Position numbers and translations under genes: made by a program. Shown here in pieces: positions 115 to 27,979 of a DNA stretch of 35,359 nt. This stretch comes from a virus. The notes under the pieces were generated by a model. That model worked only from the letters and a program-made list of their open reading frames with translations. It was not told where the DNA came from and did no database searches. The stretch lies in UHGV virus genome UHGV-0358463. One strand, given 5' to 3'. Each line of letters starts with the position of its first letter. The first letter of the stretch is position 1.

Positions 115-190
115 GCCGATATAGCTCAGTTGGTAGAGCAGCGCATTCGTAATGCGAAGGTCGTAGGTTCGACTCCTATTATCGGCACCA
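115..190 (+). tRNA. thrW: tRNA-Thr, anticodon CGU
   Basis: 76-nt cloverleaf: acceptor stem GCCGATA/TATCGGC, D-arm TAGCTCAGTTGGTAGAGCA, anticodon stem GCGCA/TGCGA with loop TTCGTAA, T-arm GGTTCGACTCC, 3' CCA. Confidence 0.9.
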
Positions 191-204
191 TTTAAATCAA
201 TAAG

Positions 205-1368
205 TTACACATCATTAGTACCTTCCTTATTTTTTGACTGGGACAAATTTGGGACCGATGGGTTCAGGATCGAGTCTATTTGCCGTGCGTGTTCGGTAAG
301 GTGATTAGGTGCAAGGTGAGCATATCGACGAACCATTTCGATAGACTCCCAGCCTCCCATTTCCTGTAACACTGACAACGGGACTCCGGCTTGAACCAGC
401 CAACTTGCCCAGGTGTGTCTCAAGTCGTGAAATCTGAAATCATCAATACCAGCCCGTCTCAGCGCCGCTTTCCAGGCTGTGTTTGCGTCATACCGCATCT
501 TCCTTACTGTTGGCGCTTTCGTTCCGTCTGGTTTGGTACAGCTTTCCTTGTACACAAATACCCAACGGTGATGATTCCCGATTTGTTTTTTCAATACGCG
601 ACATGCAGTATCATTCAGCGCAACGCCAATTGCGCGGTTTGATTTACTCTCTTCCGGGTTTATCCATGCCACCCGGCGCTGCATATCTATTTGTTGCCAT
701 TCAAGGTTGATGATGTTCGAGCGTCTTAAGCCTGTTGCCAGTGCAAATTCAACAACAGACTTTAATGGCTCCGGACATTCATCAATCAGCCTTTGTGCTT
801 CATGGGGCTCCAGCCAGCGGATCCGTTTATTCTTTGGTTGAGGCACTTTAATAATTGGTGCCTTATCCAGCATTTTCCATTCACGCTCTGCGGCTCTTAG
901 TAGGGCCTTTATAAATGAAAGATGCGTAGCCTTCGTTGCAACGGACGCTGGTTTTGGCGTGTATTCTGGAACAGGTTTCCCTTTTTTTCTGCATGCTTCT
1001 GCCCTGAGTTTCCAGTTTTCCTCATGACGCCGGTTCGTCATTTTCTGCATTGCTGAATAAATTTTTGATTCGGTAATGTCTCTTAGTTGCATTCCTGCGA
1101 AATGTTGAAGCCAGAATCCGATCCGGCTTTTGTCATCGTCCAGTGATTTTTTATGTGCTTTCTCTTCAAGCCACCTGACACACGCTTCCTCGAACGTTAT
1201 ATCAGGTATTTCACCAAGTTTGCTGACCCGCCATGCTTCAGCCTTTAGCTTGTCATGGAGTTCTGTCGCCTGCCTTTTGTCCTTTGTTCCAAGAGACTGT
1301 TTAAATCTTTTACCGTTCGGCAATGTGAAACTGGCGTACCATATTTCACCTCTGCGGAAGAGTGACAT
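205..1368 (-). CDS. int: tyrosine-type site-specific integrase (P22-like family)
   Basis: 387 aa. N-terminus [48 protein letters not shown] and C-terminal [10 protein letters not shown]...RRYAH catalytic region typical of phage tyrosine recombinases; sits next to the tRNA. Confidence 0.95.
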
Positions 1369-5589: not shown

Positions 5590-6282
5590 TTAATTATGTC
5601 TCTTAAGGGTTTGCGACTGACTGATTAAGACCTTTCCAAAGACCATGAATCGGTGTTCGTTTTCGCTAGTAATTCCCCATTCACGGTAAATCTGGTTATC
5701 AGAAATCACCAGCAGTTTGTCAGGAATCATTTGAAGTCTTTTAACGTATATTTTGTCATCAAAACCAAAGACATATATACCATCACCATCAAACTGATTG
5801 ATGCTGACATCAACGAAGATGAGATCTCCTGGCTCAATGGTTGGACACATACTGTCCCCACGAACGTTGATAACTTTGATGTGATTGGCTGGTCGTCCGC
5901 CGAACATTGATACAGCATTATCAGTTCTGTATTCGATGGCATGAATCACATCAATGACATCACCGCCCTGGATAAGGCCATTTCCCGCACTGGCACTGAT
6001 ATCCAGCATTTCAATACGGAACACATCCTTCACCTGCGCAACATCCTCATTATTACTGTTTTTATATACAGTATTACTTTTGTGGGCAGAGGTAAAGAGA
6101 TCAGCAATATCAACACCTAAGCTCTTGGCAATATTACTCAGTGTTTGTTCGGTAAATTGTTTTTGCTTACCCGTTTCTAAGCGCGAGATGTTCGCCGCAT
6201 CTACTCCTATTGCTTCAGCGAGATCGGCGATTTTCATGTTCTTCGCTTGGCGAAGTTGTCTGACTCGGTTTCCTATGTTCAT
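5590..6282 (-). CDS. cI-type prophage repressor (N-terminal XRE HTH, C-terminal S24 LexA-like peptidase)
   Basis: 230 aa; HTH region IADLAEAIGVDAANISRLETGK; S24 signature ...VRGDSMCPTIEPGDLIFVD...YVKRL... . Confidence 0.9.
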   Translation of the reverse strand: MNIGNRVRQLRQAKNMKIADLAEAIGVDAANISRLETGKQKQFTEQTLSNIAKSLGVDIADLFTSAHKSNTVYKNSNNEDVAQVKDVFRIEMLDISASAGNGLIQGGDVIDVIHAIEYRTDNAVSMFGGRPANHIKVINVRGDSMCPTIEPGDLIFVDVSINQFDGDGIYVFGFDDKIYVKRLQMIPDKLLVISDNQIYREWGITSENEHRFMVFGKVLISQSQTLKRHN

Positions 6283-12509: not shown

Positions 12510-12528
12510 GACGGCCATATTGGCCGTC
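12510..12528. terminator. perfect 8-bp hairpin (GACGGCCA-tat-TGGCCGTC) between convergent Q and cassette genes; possible bidirectional terminator
   Basis: Palindrome read directly; flanked by AT-rich sequence on both sides but no clean T-tract. Confidence 0.3.
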
Positions 12529-13705
12529 AGCTAAATAAATATGTAATAGCATAAGGCGTAAGTAAAAAGTAGAACCTAAATGTAAGATATAAGCCACATA
12601 AAACTATAATTCCTAATGAGGCAAAAACAACTTTCTGAACAAGCAATCTTGTGGTTAAACTATCAAATGTATCCTTTATATCTTCGTAAATAGCCTTGAA
12701 GTTATATTCTGCTTGTTGTTTTTTATGATTTAACTCATCATTTATTGCTGTTAAAGTTTGCCATTGATTAAATAGAACAAATAGAATCATAATAGTGAAG
12801 AACAATGCACCCAACACTACAGCTGTATTTATTAATGCTTGACTATCCCAACCATTAGCCTGCTTCATTTGAGTCGCAACGATAATTGTTGCGACGGGGA
12901 TACCTAATATCTGATTTTGTATGTCACTGAATACTTTATGTATTTTTCCCATCTCTTCTATTTTGGCTACTCGTAACTGATCCAGTATTTTCTCGTAAGA
13001 AAAACCAGAAACGAATACTTTGTATCCTTTTTGATAACTTTCATAAAGTTGTCCTAAATCCCTTAACATGAAGGAAAAAGAGGTTTCTTTAGTTTTAGAT
13101 TCACATGATGATTTTATGCTACTTGCTAAAATAGTAAGTTTTTGATCTTTATGCGTATCTTCTGCAAAGTTTGCGATCAAATTATGAATCAGATCTCCAT
13201 TAACATTCATAAGATCATCGCTAGAATAATTTACTGGAATTTTTAGTACGTTGGATTCGACGAATACCAATTCAAAATTTGTTTCATCTAAATAAGCAGA
13301 ACAATCTTTGAATAAAGTAATTAAGCTCAAAACATCTCTGTACTTGGATATAATAGCAGGCGACTTTTTATCCCTGTTGTGATAATTAAGTTCGATTATA
13401 AAGAAGTTACTGGCTTCCTTTATCCTATTTTTAGGATTTTTTAAATACTCATTAAAAGAGAAATGTAGCTGCCCCAATCGTAATTTGGGGGGGGTTATAT
13501 GTAAGGTTATAGTTTGGCCTAACTCAATGTTGCCAGATTCAAGGGTGATGCCAAAATCATGGGGATTCTCTGTGATATCGTTGATGATGTTACAGAGCTC
13601 CTCGTTTGAAAGAATGAGTGATGCTTCAGATAGGGTACCTGCAAATGTAGCGGCCTTGTAAATAGTCACTAAGTCTTTGAAGGTTCTCTGATTGTTACTG
13701 CTCAT
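12527..13705 (-). CDS. cassette gene B: protein with a large soluble N-terminal domain and two C-terminal hydrophobic helices
   Basis: 392 aa from the ATG at 13705 (ORF track gives 13714, a GTG); hydrophobic segments ALINTAVVLGALFFTIMILFVLF and KVVFASLGIIVLCGLYLTFRFYFLL; overlaps gene A by 11 nt. Confidence 0.7.
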   Translation of the reverse strand: MSSNNQRTFKDLVTIYKAATFAGTLSEASLILSNEELCNIINDITENPHDFGITLESGNIELGQTITLHITPPKLRLGQLHFSFNEYLKNPKNRIKEASNFFIIELNYHNRDKKSPAIISKYRDVLSLITLFKDCSAYLDETNFELVFVESNVLKIPVNYSSDDLMNVNGDLIHNLIANFAEDTHKDQKLTILASSIKSSCESKTKETSFSFMLRDLGQLYESYQKGYKVFVSGFSYEKILDQLRVAKIEEMGKIHKVFSDIQNQILGIPVATIIVATQMKQANGWDSQALINTAVVLGALFFTIMILFVLFNQWQTLTAINDELNHKKQQAEYNFKAIYEDIKDTFDSLTTRLLVQKVVFASLGIIVLCGLYLTFRFYFLLTPYAITYLFS

Positions 13706-14729
13706 CCTCTTCACCTAATTCTGATAAAATCTCTGATCTTAGCGTATCCGGAATCTCGGTAAGTATCAATTTATCGTTTTCTGAATCATAAAGAACGCTG
13801 CCATCATGCAAGGCCGCACGCTCGAATTTCAGAGACCAATGTTTGGACTTTCCTTTGAAACTAACAAGCCCACGTATAACGTTGCCATCAGGCACGAACC
13901 CATCAGAGAACTCCAGATCGTCATTGGTTAACTTTTCAACTAACAACTCAGGAGCAGTTGGCCATATCTCGTTTGCAAAAACTTGAGTGTCGAAAGCTTC
14001 ACCAGAACGATTTAAATTTTTTAATTTTTCATGAGCCTTATTTAGGAACTCTTCACGTGCCTCTGGTTCAAAACCTCTTTCAGTAGCAAATTCTAAAAGT
14101 GCATTCCGTAATTTTGTTGTTTCTTGTTTGGCAATTAGAATATCGTTGCAACCTAAAAACTTTTTGAAATAACCTGCTACTGAATTTTGCCCCTTTAGAA
14201 AGCTAATATATCTCTCTTTGCCATTCTGGCGCCCAGTTAAGTCAATTCGTCCCGCTACTCGAAGTTTAGCAATGTCTAGATATTCACTTTCTTGAATTTC
14301 AAAATCGTGGACTGAAGAGCCAACTGCTGATGTTAGGATTGCAACCATCAAATAATGATTTCCATTTACCTCATTATGGGCAATTATTACATAACCACCA
14401 GTAGACATTGATTCATCATCGGCTCTGGCTTTTAAATGATTGATCATTCGGATACTAGTATCATAAAAACTATGTGTTTTATTTACGAAATAATCATCAA
14501 CGATATTACCCATAGGGTAACTATCGCGGTCATCTTCAAATTTACCATATCCTTTACCTGCTCTCCCAGAGTACCTTTCAGTAAGTGCGTTAGAGAGGTC
14601 TTTTGATGCTTGCTGAACAGGTTTTTCTGAAGGACAAGGAATAATGGTGGCTAACCCCTGTTGTTCCTTGTTCATAATGTGAACAATAAACTTATGAGTG
14701 ATATTAGTGGGGGTCGCTGATGCAGTCAT
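13695..14729 (-). CDS. cassette gene A: NdpA/YejK-like nucleoid-associated-protein family homologue
   Basis: 344 aa; AAGGA Shine-Dalgarno at 14738-14742. Collinear matches to E. coli YejK recalled from memory: GGYVIIAH..YLMVAILTS, YLDIAKLRVAGRIDLTG, RYISFLKGQ, VAGYFKKFLGC, LILTEIPDTLRSEI. Confidence 0.75.
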   Translation of the reverse strand: MTASATPTNITHKFIVHIMNKEQQGLATIIPCPSEKPVQQASKDLSNALTERYSGRAGKGYGKFEDDRDSYPMGNIVDDYFVNKTHSFYDTSIRMINHLKARADDESMSTGGYVIIAHNEVNGNHYLMVAILTSAVGSSVHDFEIQESEYLDIAKLRVAGRIDLTGRQNGKERYISFLKGQNSVAGYFKKFLGCNDILIAKQETTKLRNALLEFATERGFEPEAREEFLNKAHEKLKNLNRSGEAFDTQVFANEIWPTAPELLVEKLTNDDLEFSDGFVPDGNVIRGLVSFKGKSKHWSLKFERAALHDGSVLYDSENDKLILTEIPDTLRSEILSELGEEDEQ

Positions 14730-25562: not shown

Positions 25563-25733
25563 ATGTTTGTCAAACCTGTTAAAGGGCGGTCAGTTCCTGA
25601 CCCTGCCCGCGGCGACCTTTTGCCCGCCGAAGGGCGAAATGTTGACGAGAACAACTACTGGCTGCGCCGTGAAGCAGCGGGTGATATCCGGCGCGTGAAT
25701 AAAAAGGTGAACACCGATGACGATAAGCTTTAA
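25563..25733 (+). CDS. small conserved-position ORF, 56 aa, between tail-completion and sheath genes
   Basis: Not in the ORF track (under 60 aa); ATG at 25563, stop at 25731-25733; overlaps the sheath start; reads MFVKPVKGRSVPDPARGDLL... . Confidence 0.4.
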   Translation: MFVKPVKGRSVPDPARGDLLPAEGRNVDENNYWLRREAAGDIRRVNKKVNTDDDKL

Positions 25734-27211
25734 CACCATTCCGTCGAATACGCTGGTTCCGCTGTTTTATGCGGAAATGGATAACCAGGCGGCGAATACT
25801 GCACAGGACAGCGGAGCATCGCTGCTGATTGGTCATGCCAATAACGGTGCAGAGATTGTTGCCAACAGTCTGGTGCTGATGCCGTCGGCAGACTATGCAC
25901 GCCAGATTTGTGGTGCGGGAAGTCAGCTGGCGCGTATGGTCGAGGCTTATCGCCAGACCGACCCGTTTGGCGAGCTGTATGTGATTGCCGTTCCTGAATC
26001 CACGGGCGGCGGCAACGGTTACGCTGACGGTGACCGGGGAAGCAACCGAAACCGGCACGGTGAATGTCTATGTGGGACGTACCCGCGTGCAGGCTCCGGT
26101 GACCAACGGCGATAACGTCACGACGATTGCCAGCAGTATCAAAGATGCCATCAATGCCGTTCCTGCCCTGCCGTTTACGGCTTCATCTTCGGCAGGCGTG
26201 GTCACACTGACCGCGCGTCATAAGGGGCTTTGCGGGAATGAAATTCCTGTCAGCCTCAATTACTACGGCTTTGGTGGGGGCGAAGTGCTGCCTGCGGGCG
26301 TACAGATTGCCGTGGCGACGGGGACCGCCGGAACGGGCTCTCCTGTTCTCACCGGCGCGGTGGCTGCAATGGCGGATGAGCCGTTTGATTATATCGGCCT
26401 GCCGTTCAACGACACGGCCTCCGTTAACACGCTGGTGACCGAGATGAACGATACCAGCGGTCGCTGGAGCTATGCGCGTCAGCTGTATGGTCATGTGTAT
26501 ACGGCAAAGATCGGCACGCTGTCAGAACTGGTGACCGCAGGTGACCAGTTTAACCAGCAGCACATTACCCTGGCGGGATACGAAAAAGAGACCCAGACGC
26601 CTGCCGACGAGCTGGCGGCAAGCCGTACCGCCCGCGCAGCGGTGTTTATTCGCAACGATCCGGCACGTCCCACGCAGACCGGTGAGCTGGTGGGTATGCT
26701 GCCTGCGCCGAAGGGGAAACGGTTCACGATGACCGAACAACAGACCCTGCTGTCTCATGGCGTGGCAACGGCGTATGTCGAAAGCGGGGTACTGCGCATT
26801 CAGCGTGATGTCACCACGTACAGGAAAAACGCTTACGGGGTTGCGGATAACAGCTACCTCGACAGCGAGACGCTGCATACCAGCGCGTATGTACTGCGCA
26901 AACTGAAATCCGTCATTACCAGTAAGTACGGGCGTCACAAGCTTGCCAGTGACGGTACCCGCTTTGGTCCCGGTCAGGCGATTGTCACCCCGGCGGTGAT
27001 CAAAGGGGAACTGCTGGCAACCTACCGTCAGCTTGAGCGAGCGGGGATCGTGGAAAACTACGAACTGTTTAAGCAGTACCTGGTTGTGGAGCGTGATGCC
27101 AGCGATCCGAACCGCCTGAACACGCTGTTCCCGCCTGACTATGTTAACCAGTTGCGTGTCTTTGCCGTGGTTAACCAGTTCCGTCTTCAGTATTCAGAGG
27201 AGTCTGCATAA
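25717..27211 (+). pseudogene. contractile tail sheath protein (Mu gpL-like) with reading frame interrupted near 26003-26012
   Basis: N-terminal 96 aa (MTISFNTIPSNTLVPLFYAEMDN...VIAVPEST) in one frame and the C-terminal ~400 aa (25985-27211) in another; switch lies in a GGCGGCGGC run. Either a real frameshift or a sequencing error. Confidence 0.55.
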
Positions 27212-27567
27212 TGGCCCGTATCGGGGGAACCTGTTATTTCAAAATTGACGGTCAGCAGCTATCGCTGACCGGCGGCATTGAGGTGCCCATGAACAGGACG
27301 GTCAATGATGACATCATCGGCCTGGACGGTTCAGTGGACCGCAAGGAAACTCACCGTGCGCCTTATGTCAAAGGGACCTTCAAGGTGCCGAAGAATTTTC
27401 CGGTGAGCAAAATCACCTCGTCTGATGAGATGACCATCACTGCCGAGCTGGCGAACGGTCAGGTCTATGTATTGTCGTCTGCCTGGCTGCACGGCGAAGC
27501 GAACCATAATGCCGAAGAAGGCACGGTTGATCTTGAGTTCCACGGTGAAGAAGGGGATTACCAGTGA
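27211..27567 (+). CDS. tail tube protein
   Basis: 118 aa; immediately after the sheath. Confidence 0.8.
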   Translation: MARIGGTCYFKIDGQQLSLTGGIEVPMNRTVNDDIIGLDGSVDRKETHRAPYVKGTFKVPKNFPVSKITSSDEMTITAELANGQVYVLSSAWLHGEANHNAEEGTVDLEFHGEEGDYQ

Positions 27568-27887
27568 TTGAGCTTGTACTTAAAAAACCGATCATCGCCC
27601 ACAAAGAAACACTGCATGTGCTGGAAATACGTGAGCCTACGTATGACGAGATTGAGGCGCTGGGGTTCCCTTTCTCTGTTTCGCCTGATGGTGGTATGAA
27701 AATGGACAGTCAGGTGGCGCTGAAATATATCCCGCTTCTGGCCGGGATCCCGCGCTCGTCTGCAGCGCAGATGACGAAGCTGGATATTTTCAAGGCAGGC
27801 ATGATTGTAATGCGTTTTTTTACCGGCTTGGAGACGGAAGAGAGCTCCGGAAGCGATTCTACAATGTCGCGTGGTTCTGGAAATTAA
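27564..27887 (+). CDS. tail assembly chaperone (short form)
   Basis: 107 aa, directly upstream of the tape measure gene; contains an in-frame slippery heptamer. Confidence 0.7.
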   Translation: MIELVLKKPIIAHKETLHVLEIREPTYDEIEALGFPFSVSPDGGMKMDSQVALKYIPLLAGIPRSSAAQMTKLDIFKAGMIVMRFFTGLETEESSGSDSTMSRGSGN

Positions 27888-27979
27888 ACCCCCTTGAACT
27901 TCGCCGGACGGCTATTTCCCACTTTGCTGATCTGGAGGCAGAGGCTGTCCGTATAAATGAGGAGATGAAGCATGGCTGA
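27815..27979 (+). other. slippery heptamer T TTT TTT (27815-27821) and open -1 frame extension to the stop at 27977-27979: predicted frameshifted long form of the chaperone
   Basis: Zero-frame codons CGT TTT TTT ACC; the -1 frame from 27821 has 52 sense codons and no stop until 27977. Confidence 0.5.

Follow-up and report, generated by a model that had tools for sequence, protein, structure and literature searches.

The prophage and its tail module

The window (the whole stretch of DNA analysed here, 35,359 nt) contains a prophage whose gene order after the integrase is early, lysis, head and tail, the end of the window falling inside a tail-fibre gene (Table 1). Because a tRNA-Thr(CGU) gene lies beside the integrase gene, only about 114 nt of host DNA are present at the start of the window. 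Integration beside tRNA-Thr is a feature that the prophage shares with the SfV/SfIV group. The right end of the prophage, with the remaining fibre genes, any gtr genes and attR, lies beyond the window. The tail module is arranged as in SfV, SfIV, SfI and SfII, in the order tail terminator, DUF2635, sheath, tube, tail chaperone and tape measure. The sheath gene has the genomic position of a sheath-protein gene, with the tail terminator and DUF2635 genes upstream and the tube gene after it.

Two other regions of the prophage were seen to differ from SfIV. In the immunity region, nothing in the window corresponds to the repressor and cro-like genes of SfIV; the gene found there instead encodes a 230-aa repressor with an HTH domain and an S24 peptidase domain (LexA/cI-like). 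This difference is ordinary lambdoid mosaicism. Between the Q-like antiterminator gene and the holin gene, a typical moron position, there are two overlapping genes. One encodes a 344-aa nucleoid-associated protein of the NA37/YejK type (PF04245, E=1.5e-68), and the other a 395-aa protein with no Pfam or PADLOC match. SfIV carries other cargo at this interval.

Table 1. Features of the window, with their coordinates and the basis of each assignment
Feature	Position	Strand	Basis or remark
Prophage of the SfV/SfI/SfII/SfIV lineage	whole window		lambdoid early genes and Mu-type contractile tail
tRNA-Thr(CGU) gene	115-190	+	adjoins integrase gene
Integrase gene	205-1368	-	100% identical to SfIV integrase
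Repressor gene, LexA/cI-like	5590-6282	-	
Two genes between Q-like antiterminator gene and holin gene	12527-14729	-	
Tail sheath gene (homologue of Mu gpL/gp39 and SfV orf11), frame-broken	25717-27211	+	nucleotide identity, Pfam, 9khy match
N-terminal ORF, 132 aa: 97 native residues (N-arm and start of domain I), then 35 out of frame	25717-26115	+	native ATG 25717; ends with TAA 26113-26115
+1 frame, open, 408 aa from TTG	25985-27211	+	
Zone with both frames open	25985-26115	+	frame-2 stop TGA 25982-25984; frame-1 stop TAA 26113-26115
Native codons for sheath residues 98-498, now in the +1 frame, no start signal of their own	26006-27211	+	domain II, subtilisin-like domain, C-terminal domain, C-arm
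Deletion junction, GCGCG -> GCG, one GC/CG unit gone	26006-26008	+	exact place within the repeat ambiguous
Tail assembly chaperone gene (PF10109)	27564-27979	+	gene end CGT TTT TTT ACC

A tail sheath gene in two reading frames

The identity of the sheath gene is established at the nucleotide and at the protein level. In BLAST comparisons it is 97-99% identical over its whole length to the sheath genes of SfV (orf11), SfIV (gp10), SfI and SfII, and to the prophage copies in about 1,100 E. coli records. In two of the matching E. coli genomes, those of the chicken isolates AH65 and AH62 (NZ_CP058302.1, NZ_CP055259.1), the feature that matches the sheath is named 'terminase large subunit domain-containing protein' in RefSeq, which is an odd annotation or possibly a fusion. 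The C-terminal ORF of the window matches three sheath families above the Pfam gathering scores, Phage_sheath_domII (43.6 bits), Phage_sheath_1 (118.4 bits) and Phage_sheath_1C (77.8 bits), and the intact homologue GE3 has the same Pfam architecture. The N-terminal ORF taken alone has no Pfam match. Once its frame is repaired, the window protein has as its closest solved structure the Mu gp39 chain of 9khy, which it matches with E=2.6e-80, residues 3-490 aligning to residues 4-494. The homology to Mu gpL/gp39 is thus full-length, with the same plan of N-arm, domains I-III and C-arm (9khy; PMC11915804). The two proteins align almost residue for residue, yet they have diverged, with many substitutions throughout.

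The preliminary description of this DNA had proposed a sheath gene split over two frames, the second offset by +1, and had quoted one peptide from each part, GNGYADGDRGSNRNRHGECL and ATVTLTVTGEATETG. Both ORFs are present with that offset in their positions, the peptides are found in them, and the SfIV sheath aligns across the pair, its residues 1-99 to the first ORF and its residues 98-498 to the second. The sheath genes of SfV, SfIV, SfI and SfII are single ORFs of 498 codons; by contrast, 2 nt are missing from the window at codons 97/98, and ORFs of 132 aa and 408 aa take the place of the single one. A single ORF running from the N-arm through the C-arm is therefore not found in the window, the frame being broken at codon 98. 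Compared with Mu gp39, the break comes directly after the part of the chain that aligns with the tube-contacting helix 72-86. A ribosomal change of frame would have to take place inside the zone in which both frames are open (Table 1).

Two nucleotides are missing from a short repeat

The switch of frame lies inside the GGCGGCGGC run at 26005-26013, with codon 98 (at 26008) as the first non-native one. Over the site, intact relatives have ACGGGCGCGGCGGCA where the window has ACGGGCGGCGGCA. Read in codons, the intact form is GAA TCC ACR GGC GCG GCG GCA ACG (ESTGAAAT) and the window form is GAA TCC ACG GGC GGC GGC AAC. The repeat at 26004-26013 is GGGCGGCGGC in the window and GGGCGCGGCGGC in the intact form. 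As a result, the Gly97 codon GGC (26005-26007, frame 1) now overlaps the Ala98 codon GCG (26006-26008, frame 2) by 2 nt.

It had been suggested earlier that a single extra G in the run would explain the two frames, and an alignment to intact homologues had been called for. The alignment replaces the gained G with a net loss of two nucleotides: a 1521-nt region of the window corresponds in the BLAST alignments to 1523 nt in all of the phage and E. coli homologues, and 99 complete E. coli genome records have exactly the window sequence plus GC, at 100% identity over 73 nt. The extra-G idea was rejected on these two observations, and the lesion is the loss of one GC/CG unit from GGGCGCGGCGGC. The frame arithmetic of an extra G and of a 2-nt loss is identical.

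The codon for Thr96 is ACA in most homologues. The version with ACG and the full tract exists as well (in the same 99 E. coli records), so that one deletion event is enough to give the window sequence. Two 1-nt deletions, or a substitution plus a deletion starting from the ACA allele, were considered and are unnecessary given the ACG allele. The gene has the marks of a frameshift pseudogene: relative to its intact orthologues it carries an indel of -2 nt, which is not divisible by three; through it, a short tandem repeat has lost one of its units; and a premature TAA follows 35 codons past the shift. The change from GCGCG to GCG is a classic footprint of slipped-strand mispairing, which is the likely origin of the deletion.

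The deleted allele in other sequence collections

How widespread the deleted allele might be was examined in several collections. Of the 1,006 E. coli genomes with the region, not one was at least 99% identical to the 71-nt junction probe of the window; the best E. coli matches to the junction were 71/73, with the gap as the sole difference. The allele was found in none of the 12 phage records. Neither the exact 41-mer over the junction nor a looser 29-mer, which permits either Thr codon, had any match in genome_contigs (species-representative), viral_contigs (IMG/VR) or metagenome_contigs (JGI), while the intact 31-mer, used as a positive control, was found in at least 120 viral contigs (IMG/VR). 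Among the matches listed, all 91 of the 91 viral-contig loci that hold the whole sheath gene have it as one intact ORF, and the same is true of all the phage and E. coli sheath homologues that were fetched. Judged from these collections, the split is private to the window sequence and is no trait of the gene family.

A mutational hot spot or a phase-variable tract was also considered. It was rejected, the junction being present in no other collection and the one similar truncation, P0002, being a large deletion. P0002, a product of a remnant prophage, is truncated very close to the residue at which the frame breaks in the window.

State of the prophage and age of the lesion

When the missing GC is put back, the gene encodes an uninterrupted protein of 498 residues with no further stops. 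The codon differences between the repaired gene and its intact relatives are almost all silent: there are 13 synonymous and 1 non-synonymous differences from ET474, and 17 synonymous and 1 non-synonymous from SW071614 and 998. In the part after the break, the comparison with the closest intact genes gives 11-14 synonymous differences to 1 non-synonymous. The 401 codons that are now out of frame still look like those of a gene under purifying selection.

The remainder of the prophage is equally undamaged. In a comparison with the inducible phage SfIV, 40 of the 40 other common genes are full length in the window, and no frame-breaking indel is found elsewhere in the 35 kb. From these genes and the codon differences in the sheath gene, the sheath lesion is single and recent, and the prophage not decayed. 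The preliminary description had spoken of a cryptic prophage; that view is contradicted by the full length of the 40 genes shared with SfIV and by the downstream sheath frame, which has not decayed. A decayed cryptic prophage is ruled out by the full length of every other gene that can be compared with SfIV. On this gene content, the prophage is otherwise complete and no cryptic remnant, and the codon differences in the sheath gene indicate that the lesion is single and very recent. The lack of secondary decay is equally consistent with a recent mutation and with an artefact.

The relatives SfI, SfII and SfV can be induced and are myoviruses; for SfI, a contractile tail and plaque formation are described (PMC3636060). 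Loss of tail function in the same phage lineage is represented by E. coli K-12 e14 and by the remnant L012, but these carry large deletions and are clearly degraded, whereas the gene set of the window is complete apart from one lesion of 2 nt. In L012:1567-2237 (Logan SRR13925403_123), sheath codons 1-94 lead into a short nonsense tail (VPERGLSV, then a stop), directly after which comes a baseplate J homologue represented by its C-terminal part. The left end of this deletion falls within a few codons of the 2-nt deletion in the window, which is probably a coincidence.

Mutation, sequence error or recoding

If the sequence is taken as it stands, the tail sheath gene would have been broken by a real, private and recent deletion of two bases, an ordinary lesion without a recoding signal. 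We consider this account quite probable. It has to be weighed against a sequencing or assembly artefact, in which the true sequence would be GGGCGCGGCGGC, with an intact gene from which two bases were lost in a short G+C-rich repeat, either at base calling or when the metagenome graph was assembled. GGC-rich motifs are known trouble spots for the Illumina chemistry. The source of the window is a metagenome assembly, the allele is found nowhere else, and the rest of the prophage is undamaged, with the signature of purifying selection intact downstream of the break, as a one-off error would show. What speaks against the artefact is the recurrence of the allele. The exact 132-aa and 374-aa products are encoded on 3-4 Logan/ENA contigs, possibly all from the reads of one sample. 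Over 19,643 nt, the ENA scaffold YACH19-1_SAMD00164868 (40.7 kb) matches the window at 100% identity; it begins 137 nt later than the window and reaches further at the other end. The differing ends indicate that there are at least two assemblies with the same allele, although the reads may be shared. An identical allele in at least two differently bounded assemblies (the ENA scaffold and the Logan contigs, 3-4 contigs in all) is not what an artefact would lead one to expect, nor is the lack of any other frame-breaking indel relative to homologues in the 35 kb. Illumina errors are overwhelmingly substitutions, and for a 2-nt deletion to enter a consensus outside a homopolymer, most reads would have to carry one and the same error, which is atypical of Illumina or of an assembler. 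Taken together, these points make an artefact unlikely, at a small but appreciable probability.

The deletion could also be real and the gene nevertheless productive, either by recoding or as a sheath made in two pieces. In the case of recoding, ribosomes would shift by -2 or +1 at GGC GGC GGC and a functional sheath would still be made. The overlap of the Gly97 and Ala98 codons by 2 nt gives this idea its geometry, since a shift at the junction would yield the native protein or one close to it: the exact native protein of 498 aa if ribosomes move by -2 after Gly97, and one of 497 aa, with one Ala fewer, if they move by +1. The out-of-frame stretch also has the codons CGG, GGA, CGA and CTA, which are rare in E. 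coli, and rare codons can provoke low-level spontaneous shifting. Yet the two-frame layout is present in none of the relatives, and within 25985-26013 there is no P-site codon able to re-pair in the +1 or -2 frame. The sole candidate for re-pairing, GGG_A at 26074, comes 22 codons further downstream, and a shift there would give a domain II with 23 altered residues. For transcriptional slippage, there is no homopolymer longer than the four bases of GGGG. There is no stop codon at the junction, and the RNA fold downstream of it is not significant (z = -1.70; 12 of 200 shuffles were as stable). The roughly 180 sheath copies that a tail requires are beyond what spontaneous shifting could supply. 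In the literature searched, frameshifting near sheath genes is discussed for tail chaperones and not for sheaths. A programmed +1/-2 frameshift was rejected on the lack of a slippery site, of conservation and of significant structure, together with this chaperone-only literature, and we regard recoding of any kind as highly improbable. The earlier reading of the split, as an inactivating mutation or a sequence error and not a programmed frameshift, is borne out in this respect: the allele is private, recoding signals are absent and the relatives have single ORFs.

A two-piece sheath would consist of the 97-residue N-terminal piece and a re-initiated C-terminal piece that assemble non-covalently. 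The contractile sheath of type VI secretion, TssB/TssC (VipA/VipB), is naturally made of one small and one large polypeptide. The break in the window falls at a domain boundary, Phage_sheath_domII starting at residue 95, and the candidate starts are TTG 25985 and, near the TAA, GTG 26087 and GTG 26099. The GTG codons are at most 26 nt from the TAA, which makes termination-reinitiation conceivable, and gene callers predicted a 374-aa product from GTG 26087. However, no recognisable Shine-Dalgarno sequence precedes any of the frame-2 TTG/GTG starts; starts at 26087 or 26099 would drop about 27-31 residues of domain II, and the N-terminal piece ends in a nonsense tail of 35 residues. In TssB/TssC the split is an ancient, conserved one between two genes that are each equipped with start signals; the split in the window is private, and its second piece is without a start signal. 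As the split is present in no relative, nothing suggests that it was selected. A two-piece sheath is therefore, in our view, even less probable than recoding. Overall, it seems very doubtful that a real deletion coexists with working tails, whether these would arise by a -2/+1 shift at GGC_GGC_GGC or from two polypeptides split at the domain I/II boundary, in which case the sheath would be the phage counterpart of TssB/TssC.

A frame change of a different kind may be encoded 1.8 kb downstream of the sheath break, in the tail assembly chaperone gene. A canonical -1 heptamer, T_TTT_TTT, is found at 27815-27821; from there, 52 codons can be read in the -1 frame before a TGA (27977-27979) that overlaps the tape-measure ATG at 27972. 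The site looks like a known programmed frameshift of the G/GT type. In annotated relatives, only the short chaperone product is listed. The -1 frameshifts of tail chaperones (P2 E/E', lambda G/GT, the Mu gp41 region) likewise give a two-frame gene in the tail module. The resemblance to the sheath gene ends there: the chaperone gene has a canonical slippery heptamer, and such sites are conserved as a class, whereas the sheath break has no slippery site, needs a +1 or -2 shift and is found in no relative.

Consequences for the prophage

We propose that a real deletion would have arisen by slipped-strand mispairing, with the loss of one GC/CG unit from GGGCGCGGCGGC in the sheath gene of an SfV/SfIV-like prophage, resident at the tRNA-Thr(CGU) gene of a gut-metagenome E. 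coli. Ribosomes that begin at the native start codon would make a product of 132 residues, comprising the N-arm and the tube-contacting helix region, then 35 nonsense residues up to the TAA. The other 401 codons, which specify most of domain I, domains II and III and the C-arm, would remain out of frame and without a ribosome-binding site. The C-arm, needed for the inter-subunit 'handshake', would thus be lost from the product. In Mu gp39, a handshake sheet is built between neighbouring subunits from their N-arm and C-arm, helix 72-86 contacts the tube, and the tail is built of 30 hexameric rings (PMC11915804). Since a Mu-type tail needs about 180 copies of the sheath protein, no contractile tails or infectious particles are expected. 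Repression, excision, replication, packaging and lysis should remain within the capacity of the prophage.

For annotation, the locus is best described as one sheath pseudogene with a frameshift, or else marked as a possible sequence error, and not as two genes. A frameshift pseudogene or a sequence error is a kind of feature that is already known, and the finding has little importance beyond annotation. The window does offer a side-by-side contrast between an accidental break of frame, in the sheath gene, and what looks like a programmed frameshift, in the tail chaperone gene. Although it seems complete, the prophage should be scored as probably tail-defective, and this bears on metagenomic counts of intact or inducible prophages.
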